A DNA stretch of 57,614 nt, the filler included, from Dirinaria sp. TL-2023a (Eukaryota), in NCBI GenBank assembly GCA_051941275.1. It is 6 parts of 6 records of this genome, joined end to end, with 100 filler letters (N's around TTAATTAATTAA, not from the genome) between each part and the next. Parts side by side here need not be neighbours in the genome. Positions count along the whole stretch, not along the records: positions 19,286 to 28,804 come from JAVEBF010001040.1; 5 more parts are not named here. The stretch is one strand, 5' to 3'. The notes under the pieces were generated by a model that was not told the DNA's origin, made no database searches, and was given only the letters and a program-made list of their open reading frames with translations. Numbering within the stretch: the first letter of the stretch is position 1; every line of letters begins with the position of its first letter. This document shows positions 9,544 through 48,113 of the stretch, piece after piece. A program made the position numbers and the translations under genes.

Positions 9544-9643
9544 NNNNNNNNNNNNNNNNNNNNNNNNNNNNNNNNNNNNNNNNNNNNTTAATTAATTAAN
9601 NNNNNNNNNNNNNNNNNNNNNNNNNNNNNNNNNNNNNNNNNNN
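9544..9643. other. Artificial contig spacer N44-TTAATTAATTAA-N44
   Basis: Exactly 100 bp with a six-frame stop linker; five identical copies in the window. Confidence 0.99.
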
Positions 9644-19092: not shown

Positions 19093-19185
19093 TTTTGCGC
19101 ACAAGATCCCTTGTCTGGTGTGCTAATAAGATTCGAGCGTGAAGCTTTCACCTACCTTAGACTCACTAGCCTAACCCCCCCCCCC

Positions 19186-19285
19186 NNNNNNNNNNNNNNN
19201 NNNNNNNNNNNNNNNNNNNNNNNNNNNNNTTAATTAATTAANNNNNNNNNNNNNNNNNNNNNNNNNNNNNNNNNNNNNNNNNNNN
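19186..19285. other. Artificial contig spacer
   Basis: N44-TTAATTAATTAA-N44. Confidence 0.99.
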
Positions 19286-22232
19286 GGAGGGGGTGGAGCA
19301 GGTGGTGGATGTATCTGGTTTTTTTGTGGAGGAGAGAGATCTTGGTTAGTTTTTCTTCTTCTTTTTCTGTAGAGTGGTTTTTTCTTTTTTTCTTTTTTTG
19401 GGGTGGGGGCGATATGAGAATTTGGAGAGAGAGAGATGATGCGATGAGGTTAGTTCACCTCGGTCAGGAAGGATGGAAGGATGGAAGGATGGAAGGATGG
19501 ATGGATTGATGGGTAGCAATCCGCGAATAGGAAGTGGAGAGTAACTCCCGTCGTCAAGCTTGCCCCAAGGGCACGGAGGAACATTAACCCCCTTTCCCCG
19601 TACACACCCGCGGGAGCAAGTCCCTACATACCTAACCGTAAGGTAAGGTGAGGTAGAGTAGAGTAAGGTATGGCGACCTAAGACTCCCGGGCTAAAATAG
19701 GCATCGATGATGATGATGATGTCCTTCATGCATCCCGGTCTGATCATTTTGTCCTTTCTGGGCTGCTGCCGCTGCTGCCCAGCTGCATCCCACGCCCAGA
19801 GCTCGGGCCTCAGCCAAAAGCAGCGCACGTCATTGCAGGGCAGCGCAGCGCAGGGCAGCGCAGCGCGGAAATTGGCTCCCTTATCTCCTCCCAACCTTCC
19901 AAGGCGAGCAATTAGGCACGCTGCTCCAACCGTGGGTTTAAACGGGGCTGCAGTGAGGCTTCGTGCCGATCCCTACTACAGCAGTTCTTGACGAAGTGCA
20001 GCAAAGGAATTGGCTTTGACCGCTCAGCCCGTAAAAGGAAAAGGAGCCAAGTGCTGCCCTATAGTGGTAAGTGAGGGAGGGTGGTGGTGGTGTTGGTGGT
20101 GGTGGTGGCCGCCATGGTGCAGCAGGGAGTGGGGTGGGTGGCCTTCGTCTCGGGATAAAATTTGATATGATCAAACATGTAGAGAAAGCGGAAAATTAAT
20201 GCGGCGGTTGACGGTTGGCTCGTGGTTGTGACGTTGCGCCCGTTTGCAAAGCCGGGGTTCGGAAAGTGCATTTACTAGACTTGGGAGGGGAGGTTTTTTG
20301 AGTTTTTGCTAGGGGAAGGGTAGTGAAGGAGGGCCGATCCAGTCGATCATTGGTGAGATGGATCGAAAATGGACCGGCAGGCGCTTAAACTAGGCAAAAG
20401 CAGACTGACCGCTTTTACGCCAAAGGGCGGCAAGGAAATGGGCACTTGGGCTCAATATCCTGGGATACCCTTTCACCACCGTAACTTTAGCTTTACCGTA
20501 TGCTCTGGGAATTTCCCCGATGGGAGGACCAGAGAAAATGAAGGTGTGGAGGGTGAAGTGTAAAAGACGGCCAGGAGCGACAGTCTAGACCCAACCCTAG
20601 TCGAGTGTGGCGCCCTTCCAACGTGGACTCTTGCATACTTGCTAAATCTGCAGGAGTACTCTAGTTGCGGGACGATAACGGGGAAAGGGGGTGCGACAGC
20701 CCATTCAGCGGCCCGAAAGCAGTCAGCCAAGTCTGCTGGCCCAGGCTACATGCATACACTTCACGGTCATATGACTCGATTCTTATGCGAGGAGTGACCC
20801 GCACGGAATATTCTGCAGGGGCAAAGTGACCAACGAGAATGCAGAAGAGAGCTTTGACCGACTTACTGGTCGAGCAGGCCATCCGTCGCTCCGAGCTTGA
20901 ATGGACCCGTGATAAGGTGGTGTTGGCCGAGGGATAACGATCCGAGAGCCCAGGGCATGCGGAGGGGCAGATCCAATATCGTGGAGATGAGAGAGAAGAC
21001 CTTGAATGAGAGCAGTGGGCGAAGTGGTCTGGGCGGCCGCGCGCTTCTGGTATTTGGTGACGGCGCCATCGCCTTCGACAGCGATGCTGATCGCAACGGT
21101 TCAGAATACGCTGCGACGAAGCCCTGTAGGACAAAGCGGACGGCGACAAAAGCTAGGTAAGCGTACTGGAGGAAGCGCCAGAAGACGGCCGAAACCGGAG
21201 ACCGCCCGTTGTCAACCTCTAGTGCTGTGGAGTCTCGCTCTGACAACAAGCCATATTTCTCCAGGCGGCTGCGTGTGTCAACCTCGATCTCTTCGCCCGT
21301 AGCTTTAGGTTCCACTCGCGCTTTGACAACATCGGTGATTTTGGTGATGTTACCCCAGATGAAAGAACCCTCACACATCTTGCCTCCAATCGCATTGCCC
21401 AGGATACTTTCTGCAATCACATCTGCCACAAGCGTGCGGAGACAGGCATTCTCTAAATCTTCCGTTGGCAGAAGAACAGCCAGTGCGCTCTGCACGAGCA
21501 GCTGCCTATATTGAGCTTCGTGTTTGGATTGTTCCAGAGCGGACGAGGGTGTAGAATCATCGGGAACCGGCGAAAGGGCCGGATGAGGATGGATCTTGTG
21601 GTAGATGACCCTCGGGTTGGTGGAGATGGCCGAGCCATGTACAGATGAGTGGCTGATCCGATATACTAAGGCTTCAGTCAGCTGGATGAAGGCCTGTAGG
21701 GTGCTCGGGAGTACTGACAGCGCACATGGTTCTCTATGAGCTCCGGAATTTCGTCGAATAAGAGCGCTTCCAGGTCAACAGACCGAATCCTGCCTTCGAT
21801 CGCCCTTGTACAATGTGCAATGATGCTGACTACCTCCTCGACGAAACCTTGATCCGGCGTGATCTTTCCATACCAGCTGTAGACCAGCTCTTTGACTATA
21901 ATGGCTATGATAGCGTAGAGTTGCAGGTCAATTTCGTTGCTACTGGTCAGCGGCGGTAGAAGTTCATTGACTGAGCGTGGCTCCGTAGCACCCGTGTGGG
22001 TATTCGGGCAGAGAACCCGCCTGATGAGCGCTCGGATCGTCTTGTCCACTCCATCCGTAGACGTTGCTTGAGTAGGAGCTCGAGAGGAGTTTCGGCTCTC
22101 GGATGACGGCCTCGATAGCCTTGGGGGAGTAGTATTTCCGGCTTTTGCTACGGAGGAGGTATCGCTCAAGGTTGCTACAGCCTTGGGACGAGGCTGGAGG
22201 TATGAAGGAGCACGTGGAGGAGCCTGTGTCAT
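19286..22232 (-). CDS. PXA-domain protein, 3' end running off the contig
   Basis: LPPLTSSNEIDLQLYAIIAIIVKELVYSWYGKITPD and LLPTEDLENACLRTLVADVIAE are characteristic of fungal PXA proteins. ATG at 22232, intron 21666-21718, donor GTAAGT at 20866. Proposed acceptor at 19315 (branch ACTAAC 19345-19350) gives in-frame DGLLDQ-YIHHLLHPL. The last exon assignment is inferred. Confidence 0.8.
19467..19498 (+). repeat. Microsatellite (GGAAGGAT)4
   Basis: Four perfect 8-mers. Confidence 0.9.
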
Positions 22233-22805
22233 GATAATTTGGTGGGTTGTTGAAAGAGAACCATGGTAATCGGCTGCACGTGACAGACTGCACCAGGTGC
22301 TCAAATTAAGACCCGTAGGATTTGAAGTTCGTTGATCGATATCATCACAATAATGAAATGTATAAATACCTGACTAGCTACAAGGTAGAGAGCCGTGAGA
22401 GCTTTTTGGTAAAAAATCATCTGAATGTCATTGGGCGAGATTGAGCCTTGTGGTTTGCTTGCTTACCTAAGGACTTGGCGGATCGAAATGCGAGCTCGAA
22501 GCAAGGGGTAGTTTTAGAAGCGATGGAGCCAACAACAACTACTGGAACCTCTATTGTCCTTTCGGACACGCTGAACTGTTCTCCTTCAGAGTCTGGTTTC
22601 GACAAGGGGCTTTCAGCGGCATCACTAACCTTTGCAATTGGGAGATTTCTACTTCCCTTACATAGAGGCGGAGGCAACGCGGAGGCGCCTGTCTGCTCAT
22701 CAATGTCGCTCACAGTACCTTTAGCGCTATAGTGCACTCTCACCTGGAATTTCCGTCCCATCTATCTGGTCTTACGTGACGCTTTCGATACGTTTGGCAA
22801 GTCTC

Positions 22806-24690
22806 ATGACTCGCCGTACGCCATCGACGTCTTATGCATTTTCAACTCCCCGAAGGTTTATGAGGCGTACCCAAGTATTTACTATCCTTGGTGCTGTATT
22901 CTTCATTGGAATCACACTCGCGCTTCTACGGCAATCCGGACATGGCTATCCTGCTCCCATAAAATCGACTCCGATAGAGCCAGAGTTGCTGGATCCGTCA
23001 AGTCCATTACCTCCTACAACCGCAGATACGCACCCCATCCATGAGCTGATACGGAATGCCCATGATGAAGATGAGAAGCTTAGGAACAGTCAGTCTCAAA
23101 CACTGGACGCGGCTGTATCGGAATACAAACGCAGGTATAGGCTACCTCCGCCGCCGCACTTTGATAAATGGTTTGCCTTTGCAAAAGCAAGAGATGTGCA
23201 ATTCATAGACGAGTACGACATAATATATCATTCTTTGCTACCATTCTGGGCTCTGAAGCCCTTCATCATACGTTCGAGGGCTAGGGAAGCACTTGGCTTC
23301 GACAATTCCTTGCTTGGCCTTCTAATCAGAGATGGCAAGGTCGTCAGTGCCGCCGGTGGTAGCGAATGGCAACAGCAATCTACGACACGTATGGTTGAGA
23401 GCTTTGTTCAACATCTTCCAGACATGGATCTACCATTCAACATTCATGACGAGCCTAGAGTAATCATACCTAACGAGGATTTGAGCCGGATGGTGGCAAT
23501 CGCAAAGGGAAAAACTATGCCCGTGGCCTACACAAACCCTTCGCCGAAGAACATATGGTCTCCTAGGCCGGCTGATATGGATGATGGCAGAAAATATAAG
23601 GAAGTCAAGACAACGAGATTCAATAAATTTGCCCACCAACCTACGTGGACCAACTCAAGAGTTTCTTGCTCGGCAGATAGCCCAGCACGATCACTAGATG
23701 AGAGCATGCAAGATGATCCATCTTCCTACTCCTCGTCAGACTTAGGATTCATATCGAACAAAACGGCCTTTTCCGACGTATGCCTTTCTCCATCTTTGCG
23801 TGAGCGCTTCGGGTTTTTCAATCGGCCCAATGCTTACAATATTGTCCACGATCTATTTCCCGTATTCTCCCAAAGTAAGATCAGCAGCTACCAAGACATC
23901 CTATTTCCCTCACCTTGGTACTGGTCAAACAAAGTAGCCTACAAGGAGAGCGATGACTACGATTGGGAAAAGAAAGAAAATTTGATGTATTGGCGAGGAT
24001 CGACCACCGGCGGCTTCTCCCGGGACGGTGGTTGGAGACGTCAGCATCGACAGCTCTTTGTCGCGAAGATTAATGATCTGGGCAAGGCTAAGATCTTGAC
24101 AAATTATTCCTCGTCTCCTGACGCTGCAGATTGGCGTGTGAAGGAGGTCTCTCGACCAGCCTATAAGGCTTTGTTTGATGTCAAGTTCTCCCATGTTGGT
24201 CAGTGCGATCCTGAAGACTGCGATGCTCAGCGGGAATTTTTCGAAGTGGTGGAGCCTGCAAAGCAGCACCATGCCTGGGCTTACAAATATCTGCTTGACA
24301 TTGACGGCAACGCCTTCAGCGGACGTTTCTACGCTTTCTTGAAGAGCAAGAGTCTCGTGTACAAGATGGCCCTTTTCCGAGAATGGCATGAGGAATGGCT
24401 GCGGCCCTGGGTCCATTATATACCACTTAGCTTTCGAGGAGACGAATACGTCGAGAGCGTGCGCTACTTCAGGGAAGAACGGACAGGGCAAATTGAGGCT
24501 CCGCGAATCGCCAATCAGGGACGGGAGTGGGCCAACAAAGTTCTTCGAAACGAAGATCTCGAGGTGTGGCTGTTCCGCTTGCTACTCGAGTACGTCCATG
24601 CCACGGTACAAGTGGAAGCAATACTGACATCCTTCCAGGTACGGACGCTTGGTGGACGACAACCGGGACACCATCGGGTTCAATGCGTAG
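22806..24690 (+). CDS. Glycosyltransferase family 90 (CAP10/Cxt1-like), type II membrane protein
   Basis: N-terminal TM anchor; EYKRRYRLPPPPHFDKWF, LPDMDLPFNIHDEPRV, YWRGSTTGG, YKYLLDIDGNAFSGRF, WLRPWVHYIP. Intron 24590-24638 gives C-terminus LLEYGRLVDDNRDTIGFNA*. Divergent from the PXA gene. Confidence 0.92.
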
Positions 24691-26347
24691 CGTCCTGCGG
24701 TTTCAGTCTGACGACCAGGAATAAATGTGTTGCTGGATTTCGTATTGTTTCTTTGCTCGATTGAAAACAGCGTTCGCGTGCAAAGGCCGTCTTGCATAAC
24801 ATGATACCCATCTATCTCGTAGCGAGTTCACACCTTTAATTGGTTGTATTTAGGAGGAATAGAAACCTTGATTCTCACTCCATCTACCGTAACTCTTCCT
24901 AGCTGCTCAAACTCTCATCCACGCAAAGGATCCGAGAAGGCTTTCTACATCTGTTTCGAACTTACGGTAGGTATGTAGGTAGGTGGCATTGACAATCTTG
25001 AACACAACCCTAGTAGTTCGCTCCCCCGTGTGCACTTCGAGGTAAGGTAGTAGTGAATGGAAGATGCCTTAAGGTACTTCTAAGCGGGGTTCAGCCCCTC
25101 CTGTGGCTCACGTGGCTCGTACCTACTGTATTGCGATCGGTTCCATCATCCGCGAGCGCAATTGCGTTTGAACGGCATAGATTGAGATGAATGATTCGGG
25201 CATACGTCCTGTATGTAGTGGCACATTGAGGCAAAGTGGATTGAGGTATATCATGGCAAAAATGGTTCCCCCCCCCCTAACCCGACCACCACCACTACTA
25301 TCACCACGCCCTACCTTAAGGTACCCCACTCGACTCCAAAAATACTACAAACCGCTTCCATTATTCTAGAAGCCTACCATGAATGGAAAGCTGCCGTGCC
25401 TGCATTTCCCCCATCCAGCCAGACGGCTCCACTGCTACTTTCTTTCATAAGGAAACAGGAGCCGGGACTTGCGGCATAGCGGAATCCTGACCCCTCACAT
25501 CGATGGTGGTGCGCCTTCTCCCCTTCTATCTGCTCTCCTCAGATTGCTGTTTTATTGTGTGTTGATGACTTCAACTGACTTCAACACCTTCATTCGCGAG
25601 CATCATTGACGCGGCATGGCTTTGAAGCGTGATATCGGGAGCCCGAGATTGCCAAGCTGAATAGTGGTGAAGTCACCAAAAGGTGTAGAACAGGTGTAGT
25701 TTGATTATTAATTGGTGTGGTGGTGGTGGGGAGTACGTGATAGCTCAAAGCTCTAGTTCCGAATCGAGTAGTCATGCCCAGACCCTTGCATAATCCTCGC
25801 CCAGCTCAGCTGCTGAGCCTGCTGCATCTTCCCCAATCTGCTCGGTCCCTTTTGACACTCCTCGACTGTGATCCAAAGAGATAGTTCCCTGCTCGACAAA
25901 CTTCGCGGCTGGTTGCAGCAAGCACTTTGTTGGCACGCAAGGCATTCAAGGCATTGTAACCATTTTTGGCTCGTCGATACGAGCGCTCTATCATAGCGTC
26001 TGACAGGGATCACGATAAGAGTCGTGCCCATTAGCACCTTGTCAGCTTCAGCTGGCAGTACGAATACAACCACAACCACAACCTCCTCAAGTCGTTCAGC
26101 GAAGGAGTTGGCGATATCTGTGAGCCACTGGCTCTACCTGATCTTGGGCACAAGGCCTTGTGCTGCCATGTCCGACTGATAGGTATGGATGATCGAGATG
26201 TGCATGTGCTTTCCCACCAACGGCATCAGGCTGACCCCCCTTACCCCGCCAGACTCCTCCACCACCAACACTGTCGCTACCTTCAGCTTTCAAACATTTG
26301 CTTAGGGAATCAATGTGTAAAATATCATACCGATACCCTTAGTCGCC

Positions 26348-26391
26348 TCGACTCCTAGTCCTCTTGCCTTCGACTCCTAGTCCTCTTGCCT
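26348..26391 (+). repeat. Perfect 22-bp tandem duplication
   Basis: TCGACTCCTAGTCCTCTTGCCT x2. Confidence 0.9.
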
Positions 26392-26560
26392 AAAGAACCC
26401 CCATATGCCTCACTAAACCCCGCTATATGTGCGCTGGTCGGTACGCTTGATTCCTTGTTGGCGGCCGTGGCGATTCTTTGGCCGGGTCGGAATAGGCAGT
26501 CGTATGGTTGGCATGGTCCACGAAACAGTGGATCAGATGGATCAAATAACCGCGGGCGGC

Positions 26561-28636
26561 ATGACTGAGTCCCCTGGGTCATTGACGCCCACCAGTCCGC
26601 ATGCCGAGCCTATACCCATGGACCGGCCGCCCAAACTCAAAGGCCGGAAACGCCTCCTGCAAAGTCTGCAAAGGATCTCTTCTTCACCTTCGTTGGTCCG
26701 GATGGGACGAGCCCCGTCGTCAAACTACAGGACTGAAGGGAAGGCGTCAATGTCGTGCGTATCACTCTCATCTACAATGTTCACGCCGGGACATTCCCAT
26801 GACAATTCATACTCCTCCTATTCCTCCGCCGGTTTCTCCACTGCCCCGACCTCCGTGGCAAGCACTCCGAGATTTGAGCAATTGGATTCAGACTCGAAGA
26901 TCCGCATCCGGCCTGCCCAAAGCAATGATTCCGCGAGCTACTTCTCCCAAGGCCCTACTAGCGTTCCGCTACCATCCGACCTGCGCCATACTTTCAAGGA
27001 ACATGATCCAGCAAAGCCAAAGGTAGATGAGATTGCCGAAGACTATTCCCTTCAGCCGACGGTGAAGGTGAAGGAGCCCAAGCGACGGCCGAACTTCGAT
27101 TTTTGGAACGAGATGCCACATGAGGTCAAGGTGCAAATATTCCAATATCTGAAGCCGAAAGAGATTGTAAAATGTTCAATCGTTTCCAAAGCGTGGCATA
27201 GGATGTGCTTCGATGGACAACTTTGGATGAACATCGACACCGAAGATTACTATCAGGATATCTCAAGCGACTCGCTGGTGAAGCTTCTCACAAGTGCCGG
27301 CCCATTCGTGAAAGACCTCAATTTGAGAGGGTGTGTGCAGATGCGCGAAAGATGGAGTGACGATGGCCAAAAAATCTCGGAGGTTTGCCGAAATCTCGAG
27401 AATTTCTCCCTCGAGGGTTGCAGGATCGATCGGAGAACCGTGCATAATTTCGTGACGAGAAACTCTCGATTGGTGCATATCAATCTTTCGGGGCTGTCGG
27501 CGGTACACCTGAAGACTATGGAACTCATTGGTCAAGGATGCCAACAGCTGGAACACCTCAATGTCTCTTGGTGCCCACACATCGACACGAAAGGCCTCCA
27601 GAAGATCGTGCGGTCTTGTCCCAAGCTGCAAGATCTTCGTGCTGGTGAGGTTAAAGGCTTCAATGACCGCGGTTTTCTCCTCGACCTCTTCCGTGCGAAT
27701 AGCCTAGAGAGGCTTGTTGCGTCACACTGCACGGATCTGGACGATGAATCTCTCAAACTTCTTATCCAAGGCATAGATCCGGAAACCGATCCATTGACTG
27801 ATCGGCCCCTGGTCCCTGCTCGCAAATTCCGTCATCTGGACTTTTCTCGGTGCAGCGGCCTCTCGGATACTGGAATTCAGTCTCTCGCGCATAATGTTCC
27901 CGTACTAGCAGGCCTTGAACTCTCGCACATTGAAGCCCTGACCGATTCGGCTCTTACCGAGCTCCTTCCCTCTGTTCCCCTGCTTACACACCTTGACCTT
28001 GAGGAAGTGAGCGACCTTACAAACAGCACCCTCCAAACCCTTGCAAGCTCACCCTGCGCACCTTTCCTTCAGCATCTCAACGTCAGCTATTGCGAGAATT
28101 TAAGCGACACAGGCGTTCTTCCGGTCCTGAAAACCTGCGCTTCCCTCCGCAGTCTTGTCATGGACAACACCCGCGTCTCGGACCTCGCCCTTACCGAAGC
28201 TGCTGCCCAACTTCGGCTCCGTGATCGCACTCTCACGACTCTTCCTCCTCCAACTCAGAGACCCAAAGTAGCCCTCAGCCTAGTCGTGTACGACTGCGCG
28301 AACGTGACTTGGACCGGTATCCGCGAAGTGCTCAACCGCAACGCCGAGATGCATCGTCGCTCCATCATCAGTCTGAAATGCTTCTACGGCTATCAGGATA
28401 CCGTGAACGAGCATACCAAGCGCGTGCTGCGGGGCGACAGCAAGGCAGCTCAGACGCTGGAGAGGAAATGGGCCGAGTACATGGTCGCTACGGAAGAAGC
28501 AGGGGCCGGGGGAGCAGGGGCACGGCGTCGCCGGAGAAGGGCGAGGGAGGCAGCGATGGTGCATGCCGATGAAGAGGAAGGCGGACCGAGAGGTGGCCGG
28601 AGGAGAGCCAGAAGCGGAGGCTGTATTGTCATGTGA
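26561..28636 (+). CDS. F-box/leucine-rich-repeat protein (FBXL2/20-like) with C-terminal CaaX
   Basis: F-box MPHEVKVQIFQYL...VSKAWHRMCFDGQLW, Cys-containing LRRs (LEHLNVSWC, LQHLNVSYC) and C-terminal CIVM*. Start uncertain (other in-frame ATGs lie just upstream). Confidence 0.9.
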   Translation: MTESPGSLTPTSPHAEPIPMDRPPKLKGRKRLLQSLQRISSSPSLVRMGRAPSSNYRTEGKASMSCVSLSSTMFTPGHSHDNSYSSYSSAGFSTAPTSVASTPRFEQLDSDSKIRIRPAQSNDSASYFSQGPTSVPLPSDLRHTFKEHDPAKPKVDEIAEDYSLQPTVKVKEPKRRPNFDFWNEMPHEVKVQIFQYLKPKEIVKCSIVSKAWHRMCFDGQLWMNIDTEDYYQDISSDSLVKLLTSAGPFVKDLNLRGCVQMRERWSDDGQKISEVCRNLENFSLEGCRIDRRTVHNFVTRNSRLVHINLSGLSAVHLKTMELIGQGCQQLEHLNVSWCPHIDTKGLQKIVRSCPKLQDLRAGEVKGFNDRGFLLDLFRANSLERLVASHCTDLDDESLKLLIQGIDPETDPLTDRPLVPARKFRHLDFSRCSGLSDTGIQSLAHNVPVLAGLELSHIEALTDSALTELLPSVPLLTHLDLEEVSDLTNSTLQTLASSPCAPFLQHLNVSYCENLSDTGVLPVLKTCASLRSLVMDNTRVSDLALTEAAAQLRLRDRTLTTLPPPTQRPKVALSLVVYDCANVTWTGIREVLNRNAEMHRRSIISLKCFYGYQDTVNEHTKRVLRGDSKAAQTLERKWAEYMVATEEAGAGGAGARRRRRRAREAAMVHADEEEGGPRGGRRRARSGGCIVM

Positions 28637-28804
28637 GGGGGGAAAGGCAAGCAAAGAGGGATTTACGACTGGCTTATGCGGATGAATGAAGTCCTTTAAC
28701 GCATGCTACGATGAAGCTATGATTAAGGTACCTGGCGCCAATTAGACCTGAAGAGGGTAGGTAAATCTGCATCACAATGTCGGAGCTATAGGTTCGGGGT
28801 GTGG

Positions 28805-28904
28805 NNNNNNNNNNNNNNNNNNNNNNNNNNNNNNNNNNNNNNNNNNNNTTAATTAATTAANNNNNNNNNNNNNNNNNNNNNNNNNNNNNNNNNNNNNNNN
28901 NNNN
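28805..28904. other. Artificial contig spacer
   Basis: N44-TTAATTAATTAA-N44. Confidence 0.99.
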
Positions 28905-38410: not shown

Positions 38411-38510
38411 NNNNNNNNNNNNNNNNNNNNNNNNNNNNNNNNNNNNNNNNNNNNTTAATTAATTAANNNNNNNNNNNNNNNNNNNNNNNNNNNNNNNNNN
38501 NNNNNNNNNN
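38411..38510. other. Artificial contig spacer
   Basis: N44-TTAATTAATTAA-N44. Confidence 0.99.
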
Positions 38511-48013: not shown

Positions 48014-48113
48014 NNNNNNNNNNNNNNNNNNNNNNNNNNNNNNNNNNNNNNNNNNNNTTAATTAATTAANNNNNNNNNNNNNNNNNNNNNNNNNNNNNNN
48101 NNNNNNNNNNNNN
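48014..48113. other. Artificial contig spacer
   Basis: N44-TTAATTAATTAA-N44. Confidence 0.99.

Follow-up and report, generated by a model that had tools for sequence, protein, structure and literature searches.

A long, position-conserved intron with class-spanning sequence elements in a PXA-domain gene of Dirinaria, a candidate control point for the full-length protein

Fungal introns are typically short and, as far as we know, seldom keep their sequence outside groups of close relatives. In yeast, DBP2 and YRA1 reportedly carry conserved, unusually long introns through which these genes are autoregulated. Introns may also host small nucleolar RNAs (snoRNAs), and in fungal genes of the NMT1 type a thiamine pyrophosphate (TPP) riboswitch controls alternative splicing. 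Excerpts from PMC5588854 describe intron 4 of OGT as a detained intron controlled by a conserved intronic silencer, parts of PMC4695336 describe decay-promoting introns of fission yeast that recruit Mmi1, and passages of PMC12311795 describe zipper stems in introns of yeast ribosomal-protein genes such as RPL7B. Here, we describe a 1552-nucleotide (nt) intron in a PXA-domain gene of Dirinaria sp. TL-2023a (assembly GCA_051941275.1), located in a joined stretch of 57,614 nt that we call the window, together with two short elements, E1 and E2, that lie close to its 5' splice site. Long introns with a regulatory role and conserved elements within introns are already a known kind. A limited literature search found no work on this intron or element, and no Rfam match was obtained.

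Like the introns of DBP2 and YRA1, this intron is a single one far above the norm of the organism that sits at a fixed position, and it would likewise control expression through splicing or retention. In DBP2 and YRA1 the gene's own RNA-binding product is the regulator, whereas here the protein is of a lipid-transfer type and the E1 and E2 motifs are unrelated. With the OGT and Mmi1-dependent introns it would share a short conserved element within an inefficiently spliced intron and an unspliced RNA that yields no functional protein, although the organisms and motifs differ and a binding protein is here only proposed. A 15 bp long-range pairing in the window resembles the zipper stem of RPL7B in that it would bring the two ends of a long intron nearer to each other. 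Unlike that stem, it is not conserved, and its 3' arm is found 273 nt from the acceptor and not beside the branch site. Conserved non-coding sequence inside a fungal intron is also what TPP riboswitches and intron-hosted snoRNAs would provide, but neither an Rfam match nor a conserved structure is seen here.

The reading that we prefer, with a probability of roughly 0.45, is that of a regulated and often-retained intron which gates production of the full PXA–PXC protein. Translation of the unspliced RNA would stop at the TAA or TGA built into the donor and give a PXA-only fragment, which should not fold without PXC, while splicing would lead to the functional PXA–PXC protein. E1 and E2 would act as candidate protein-binding cis-elements beside the 5' splice site, not as folded RNA, and would set the balance between splicing and either read-through or early 3'-end formation. 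In the window species, a lineage-specific 15 bp pairing (20678–20692 with 19587–19601) may in addition help to loop out 1.1 kb. An arrangement of this kind suggests a control point specific to this gene, set between two halves that form their fold only together. A bolder version would make E1 and E2 the core of an undescribed, class-spanning splicing switch in which a trans-acting factor that senses the nutrient or lipid state gates the Nvj3-like protein. We regard this version as rather unlikely; if true, the factor would bind the nascent RNA beside the 5' splice site of this one gene and decide on removal of the 1 kb intron, a control after transcription, and the element would have persisted over hundreds of millions of years.

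The gene is encoded on the minus strand, as are all further features unless stated otherwise, and its coding sequence starts from an ATG at 22232. Exon 1 (21719–22232) is defined by a tblastn match of residues 1–165 of the homologue P0002 to 22232–21723, by positions 1–73 of the Pfam PXA model and by RNA contigs. It is followed by intron 1 (21666–21718; 53 nt, GTCAGT...TAG), which is absent from the RNA contigs of three runs (X1, X2 and X3, see below); the RNA joint is given as 21666/21721, with one letter between. Exon 2 (20867–21665), assigned from translation, homologues and positions 91–180 of the PXA model, ends in ...DGLLD plus the CA of a Gln codon.

The long intron (19315–20866) interrupts this codon in phase 2. 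Its donor GTAAGT (20861–20866) contains an in-frame TAA stop codon (20863–20865), the branch-site consensus ACTAAC is located at 19345–19350 and the acceptor CAG at 19317–19315, with the spacing ACTAAC-N27-CAG. Exon 3 resumes in phase 2 after the Gln with YIHHLLHPL, and only its first 29 nt (19286–19314) are visible because the contig stops at 19286. Using full-length orthologues as queries, tblastn gives a QYLHHLL/RYIHHLL match at 19316–19296 and no other tail exon elsewhere in the window, and blastn aligns 19318–19286 with the acceptor and exon start of the orthologous locus L044, the closest genomic relative, at 85% identity. The orthologous loci carry an intron at the same position and in the same phase, with CTRAC or CTRAY before the acceptor. 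Judged from these sequence features, 19315–20866 is a genuine U2-type GT–AG spliceosomal intron between the PXA exons and a C-terminal PXC-like exon.

This agrees with the original prediction, made from the same stretch of DNA, which had placed a 1552 nt intron between a GTAAGT donor after DGLLDQ and an ACTAAC...CAG acceptor before YIHHLLHPL, and both the sequence and the tail exon of the orthologues bear it out. The intron is indeed exceptionally long, and the short introns that the prediction took as the norm agree with intron 1, the one further intron covered here, which measures 53 nt and is spliced in the RNA contigs. It had further described the interval as not AT-rich, in line with a G+C content of 53% compared with 47% for the window, and as devoid of a convincing open reading frame (ORF). 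Indeed, tblastx and a comparison of the longest ORFs between intron groups revealed no conserved ORF in the intron on either strand. A nested gene was considered and dropped, as tblastx matches are confined to intron groups that can be aligned as nucleotides and the longest ORFs are inconsistent across groups.

The PXA domain is present in the encoded protein (PF02194; E = 9.6e-23 for exon 1 and 2e-19 for exon 2), and exon 2 picks up 325 homologues at E ≤ 0.001. Among relatives with a name, the closest belong to Lecanoromycetes such as Letrouitia, Gyalolechia, Stereocaulon and Xanthoria, with about 56–62% identity. The top-scoring homologue P0002 (63% identity) ends at DQ, as do many others. 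The 569-residue orthologue P0004 continues as ...DGLLDQ/YLHHLLITHLL..., with a tail of about 130 conserved residues (129 amino acids). Residues 428–512 of P0004, within this tail, match PF08628 (Nexin_C) with E = 4.8e-4 and 20.9 bits, which is under the Pfam cut-off of 22.3. A hidden Markov model (HMM) built from 12 tails matches 30 of the 40 long homologue tails, 12 of these 30 being its training rows. Pfam finds no PX or RGS domain. The gene is thus probably Nvj3-like (PXA–PXC only) and of the lipid-transfer type, with orthologues that carry a PXC-like C-terminal exon of which the window shows nine codons.

The PXA domain and the PXC/Nexin_C-like tail of the orthologues are also what likens the protein to the Nvj3/S. 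pombe Pxa1 type described in parts of PMC8864675. The likeness to Nvj3 is one of domain content, with a Nexin_C match in P0004 that stays below the cut-off. According to the portions of PMC8864675 that report AlphaFold-based work, the two domains PXA and PXC are interwoven and each is unlikely to fold by itself. The model of P0004 is too poor to add to this (mean pLDDT 59.8), and no PDB match was obtained by sequence or by Foldseek.

To assess conservation of the intron, 12 full-length orthologues were aligned and the alignment was used to scan contigs from metagenomes. This matched 315 stretches, of which 191 encode a relative; the analysis continued with the best 80 loci. Many of these loci represent one organism in several assemblies, and about 22–24 distinct sequences were used as representatives. 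The junction codon is included in 70 of the 80 loci and the start of the tail exon as well in 53. The gap between exon 2 and the tail measures 773–1877 nt in 48 loci, 528 nt in one and 50 nt in one, with a median of 1009.5 nt over these 50 genomic loci, and 0–1 nt in three short cDNA-like contigs. All 70 loci with the junction have a phase-2 donor at this codon (GTAAGT in 36, GTGAGT in 13, GTATGT in seven, GTAAGC in six and others in eight), and the orthologous introns end in CTRAC...YAG. By best named protein, the loci resemble Lecanoromycetes, Helotiales (Phlyctema), Pleosporales (Alternaria with 81%, Pyrenophora and Pyrenochaeta), Venturia, Cladophialophora and Paecilomyces/Aspergillus. On these assignments, the position, the phase and the unusual length of the intron (∼0.8–1.9 kb) are kept across at least four classes of Pezizomycotina (Lecanoro-, Leotio-, Dothideo- and Eurotiomycete-like), in fungi whose other intron of the gene is ∼40–60 nt long. 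In most non-Lecanoromycete loci the long intron is the sole intron of the gene or one of two.

The orthologous long intron is really spliced in a relative, since L004 is 100% and 99.8% identical to the genomic loci L011 and L012 and exactly lacks their 57 nt and ∼923 nt introns. The same exon–exon junction is seen in L021 and L029 when compared with more distant genomic relatives. The intron is short in two loci, measuring 50 nt in L034 and 528 nt in L070.

The intron sequences are mostly unalignable between lineages, except for their 5' end. It is here that E1 is found (CGCATAAGAATCGA-GTCATATGAC, 20766–20789), with the family consensus CCGCATGAGATTTCA-GTCAnnTGAC-TT, also written as CGCATGAGATTTCA-GTCAnnTGAC. 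Its CGCAT, TCA and TGAC (12 positions) are invariant in all 20 aligned sequences, which come from about nine divergent groups. Of the 62 genomic loci that have at least 220 nt past the junction, 59 contain E1, the misses being L032, L033 and L077. A loose E1 pattern gives 62 matches on both strands of 744,656 bases, corresponding to the 59 loci, one match in the window and two elsewhere, and E1 is on this count of sequence matches shown to be gene-specific. What makes E1 stand out is the depth of its conservation, with 24 nt beside a donor that span several classes. L032 and L033 contain a variant of E1 and L070 and L077 contain none, and these are natural loss cases.

Could this simply be an ordinary intron that is long by chance, with blocks of slow-evolving neutral sequence and no function? 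Most of the stems listed in the original prediction are at chance level (see below), as would then be expected. The 12 positions that do not vary in 20 of 20 sequences from four fungal classes while the remaining intron cannot be aligned, the gene specificity of E1 and the length kept in 48 of 50 genomic loci nevertheless make this explanation extremely improbable.

E1 forms part of a conserved 5' block of the intron (20601–20866) that is 73% identical to L044, L047 and L050, the same as for the exons. A single blastn alignment between the window and L044 (22232–20601, 69% identity) extends 265 nt into the intron, and the intron part alone is 73% identical to the relatives over 273 nt. A coding function of the block was rejected, as conservation is similar in all frames, with stop codons and with indels whose lengths are not divisible by three. 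By eye, a 1 nt indel separates the window from L044 inside the E2 region, and the E1 frame contains stops in L005 and L072. E2 (CCCGTTATCG, 20673–20682; family (CCC)GTTATCG-N3-TGCA) is invariant as CCCCGTTATC in eight Lecanoromycete sequences, and a GTTATC-like site follows E1 in 46 of the 62 loci. The distance from E1 to E2 is mostly 90–115 nt (76–152 nt in 16 loci), and both elements reside in the first ∼230 nt of the intron. Further downstream, a 47 nt block (20359–20314) is 89% identical in the L044 group only. GCAT-type motifs are 1.4–3.4-fold enriched in the first 300 nt but on both strands, and were therefore set aside as uninformative.

RNA evidence was obtained from Logan contigs of four runs (X1–X4), all from one sample of one study that carries a lichen metagenome label. 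The source strain is 90–99% alike to the window. Such contigs show presence and not absence, rare forms being dropped, and they provide a single depth figure per contig. Two microsatellite stretches of the intron were excluded from contig placement as repeats. In X1, a contig of 2056 nt covers 20200–21666 and 21721–22308, and in X3 a contig of 1873 nt covers 20471–21666 and 21721–22395. In both, intron 1 is removed and the sequence runs unspliced across 20866. Contigs from X2 (20637–21157) and X4 (20775–21509) cross the donor too and do not span intron 1. Processed RNA that keeps at least the first 230–660 nt of the long intron is shown by these contigs to exist in the related strain. As the donor is crossed unspliced, translation of such an RNA would stop at the donor TAA and give a PXA-only product. 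The original prediction had also foreseen a truncated form. Read-through RNA in the related strain and the stop in the donor lend substance to it, although not by way of a structured RNA. The proximal CAG near 20813 that was to produce it is common to a single related lineage only, and no RNA contig has a joint there.

At the other end of the intron, contigs of 630, 558, 435 and 837 nt are unspliced across the acceptor and extend into exon 3 and past the end of the genomic contig. These acceptor-side contigs (435–837 nt) contain the last 70–500 nt of the intron plus exon 3, at about twice the depth of the PXA exons. The depth is ∼20 up to roughly 20640 and then ∼5, with values of 32–42 over exon 3. 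These differences were considered as a sign of 3' ends ∼220 nt into the intron and of a second transcript, and were not counted, depth being given per contig.

Several points weigh against a regulated and often-retained intron. Neither a 20867^19314 joint nor a loose end there is found in the contigs of the four runs, with only 29 nt of exon 3 available for the match. There is no poly(A) end and no loose end at an A/T run in the intron, in contigs that by their nature cannot show RNA ends. A second transcript that starts internally or belongs to a convergent neighbour may overlap at exon 3. Condition-dependent splicing is a part of the model that we infer. Of 150 representative homologues, 88 end at the junction, which could reflect a real short form or, equally, ORF callers that halt at the donor stop codon. 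Finally, GTCAnnTGAC, the core of E1, is a palindrome around a 2 nt spacer, which points more naturally to a dimeric DNA-binding protein than to an RNA site.

In the main alternative, which we consider unlikely, E1 and E2 are DNA elements. Bound by transcription factors, they would constitute either an enhancer inside the intron or an internal promoter, which may be antisense; the intron would be long as their housing and splicing would be constitutive. The central dinucleotide of E1 varies, as is typical for sites of dimeric DNA-binding proteins, and motifs that we take to be CCAAT, GATA-like (TTATCG) and CGG/CCG-like (CGGnCCG-like) occur near E1 and E2 in several lineages. No conserved RNA structure was found, the intron is conserved with L044 whereas the 5' upstream region of the gene is not, and the higher-depth RNA contigs begin in the intron and cover exon 3. 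An enhancer would, however, not need the tight spacing that is observed, with E1 65–177 nt past the junction and in 51 of the 59 loci only 65–95 nt from the 5' splice site. Nor would it need a single orientation (E1 is always on the sense strand) or the order of E1 followed by E2 over class-level divergence. An internal promoter would give no PXC protein, as the tail exon is without an ATG of its own: no in-frame ATG is present upstream in the window or early in the orthologue tails. Moreover, the region is part of RNA that is continuous with the spliced upstream exons.

The same contigs can be read as a functional split of the gene in this lineage. The TAA would then close a PXA-only gene whose 3' untranslated region spans 20866 to 20200, the C-terminal exon would be part of another transcript and the 'intron' would in effect be intergenic. 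RNA contigs cross the donor and, separately, the acceptor, none joins both, and those over exon 3 differ in their depth figure; P0002 and many other homologues end at DQ. Set against this are an intact and conserved donor, branch site, acceptor, phase and start of exon 3, the splicing of the same intron in a relative (L004 versus L011/L012) and a tail that lacks a start codon. Assembled contigs also lose minor isoforms, and PXA alone should not fold according to the parts of PMC8864675 cited above. A split gene is on balance very improbable.

The ends of the homologues can be broken down further. Among the 150 representatives, the 88 end within two residues of the junction, 40 continue for at least 60 residues, 14 run on for 3–59 residues and eight are fragments. 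Since GT[AG]AGT in phase 2 brings a stop codon at once, programs for ORF calling or gene prediction that overlook the 1 kb intron will truncate the protein there. About six in ten database homologues end at this donor, and many may therefore be truncated gene models.

A further possibility is that the intron hosts an independent non-coding RNA, snoRNA-like, another small RNA or a long non-coding RNA, with E1 and E2 as its conserved parts and its size as the reason for the ∼1 kb length. In many lineages the introns have lengths close to 1 kb despite sequences that cannot be aligned, the conservation of E1 and E2 resembles that of an RNA gene, and RNA contigs of run X2 cover the entire interval. 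A covariance-model search against Rfam nevertheless gives no match at E ≤ 1 on 19100–21100 and none at the gathering score in the 117,996 bases of 16 orthologous loci, which agrees with the original prediction in that no known family could be assigned; Rfam contains described families only, and a new family could escape. No consistent C/D or H/ACA arrangement of snoRNA boxes is apparent by eye. RNAalifold predicts no pairs on a 20-sequence alignment of the conserved core. With eight Lecanoromycete sequences it predicts 27 pairs, among them one hairpin across the 5' splice site (GACCAGU/UUGGUC) and another, G-rich/CCCC, ahead of E2; only two of the 27 pairs are compensatory. Folding of the E1–E2 region in 15 lineages gives z values between +1.70, for the window, and −2.31, and in no lineage is the region more stable than every one of 200 dinucleotide shuffles. 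A pairing of E1 with the TGCA element after E2 was examined by eye in 16 lineages and abandoned, its three variable pairs showing no covariation. We consider an independent RNA improbable. The proposal in the original prediction of an intron-embedded structured RNA is not supported by these results: the orthologous introns are long (∼1 kb) and contain conserved sequence, but no covarying stems were found.

Of the individual stems proposed in the original prediction, only the hairpin at 20333–20378 (−20.9 kcal/mol) exceeds the shuffles, with z = −5.0 and none of 200 as stable, while the others have z values from −0.3 to −1.7. All of them lie outside the deeply conserved part of the intron. The 3' arm and loop of this hairpin fall inside the 47 nt block shared with L044 (20314–20359), and L044 is by eye able to form a hairpin there with a 5' arm that is built differently. 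Shared with one lineage, the hairpin is at best young and lineage-restricted. A 10-mer occurring both beside the donor and within the intron had also been pointed out. Its two matches compare with 0.09 expected for that particular word, but some repeated 10-mer in 1.6 kb is close to chance: about one such pair is expected, and shuffled sequences routinely give inverted repeats of 9–10 nt.

Long-range pairing was found by a repeat search in the form of a perfect 15 nt inverted repeat. Its 5' arm (20678–20692) overlaps E2 and its 3' arm (19587–19601) lies before the acceptor, so that 1076 nt are looped out. None of 300 shuffles reaches 15 nt, the maximum being 14. In the related strain, one RNA contig has a C inserted behind 19595, in the 3' arm. 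Exact and ungapped searches show that the pairing is not conserved in relatives, and among 24 lineages a long-range pairing above all shuffles is seen only in the window and in L008. A conserved 5'-proximal TGGTTGG facing the branch site CTAACCA is the best duplex in six of the 24 lineages and is singly significant only in L027; a permutation of own versus cross pairings of these two sites gives p = 0.10. The first 70 nt of the intron pair better with their own branch region than with that of almost every other lineage (rank 1–4 of 21) in L013, L038, L039, L027, L080, L022 and L008. These lineages are Helotiales-, Venturia- and Pleosporales-like, and the window and the other Lecanoromycetes are without such pairing. 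In L027, 14 of 16 positions are paired over GUGCUAACCA.

The intron also contains microsatellites at 19374–19519 and 20071–20119, comprising a (GGAAGGAT)n repeat with four copies at 19467–19512 and a (CAC)n-like run.

The window consists of six contigs joined in order of descending length, from 9543 to 9501 nt, and the PXA gene is on the piece 19286–28804, which ends at 19286. Five identical artificial linkers (44 N, TTAATTAATTAA and 44 N; no strand) occupy 9544–9643, 19186–19285, 28805–28904, 38411–38510 and 48014–48113. As they join separate contigs, features near the linker coordinates and any 'synteny' across them are artificial. Below 19186 the window continues with an unrelated contig that carries an amino-acid-permease-like ORF on the plus strand. 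On the PXA contig itself, a long ORF at 22725–24764 (plus strand, 679 amino acids from stop to stop) is divergent from the PXA gene. In L044 it is absent over a distance of 7 kb from the PXA gene, and the local gene order is thus not conserved.

Within exon 2, a single RNA contig of run X2 skips 108 nt (21155–21262), a multiple of three. Its depth is 9.9, the shorter side of the joint has 27 letters and, read on the plus strand, the skipped segment has GT..AG ends. An exitron, antisense splicing or an artefact of assembly could each account for the skip.

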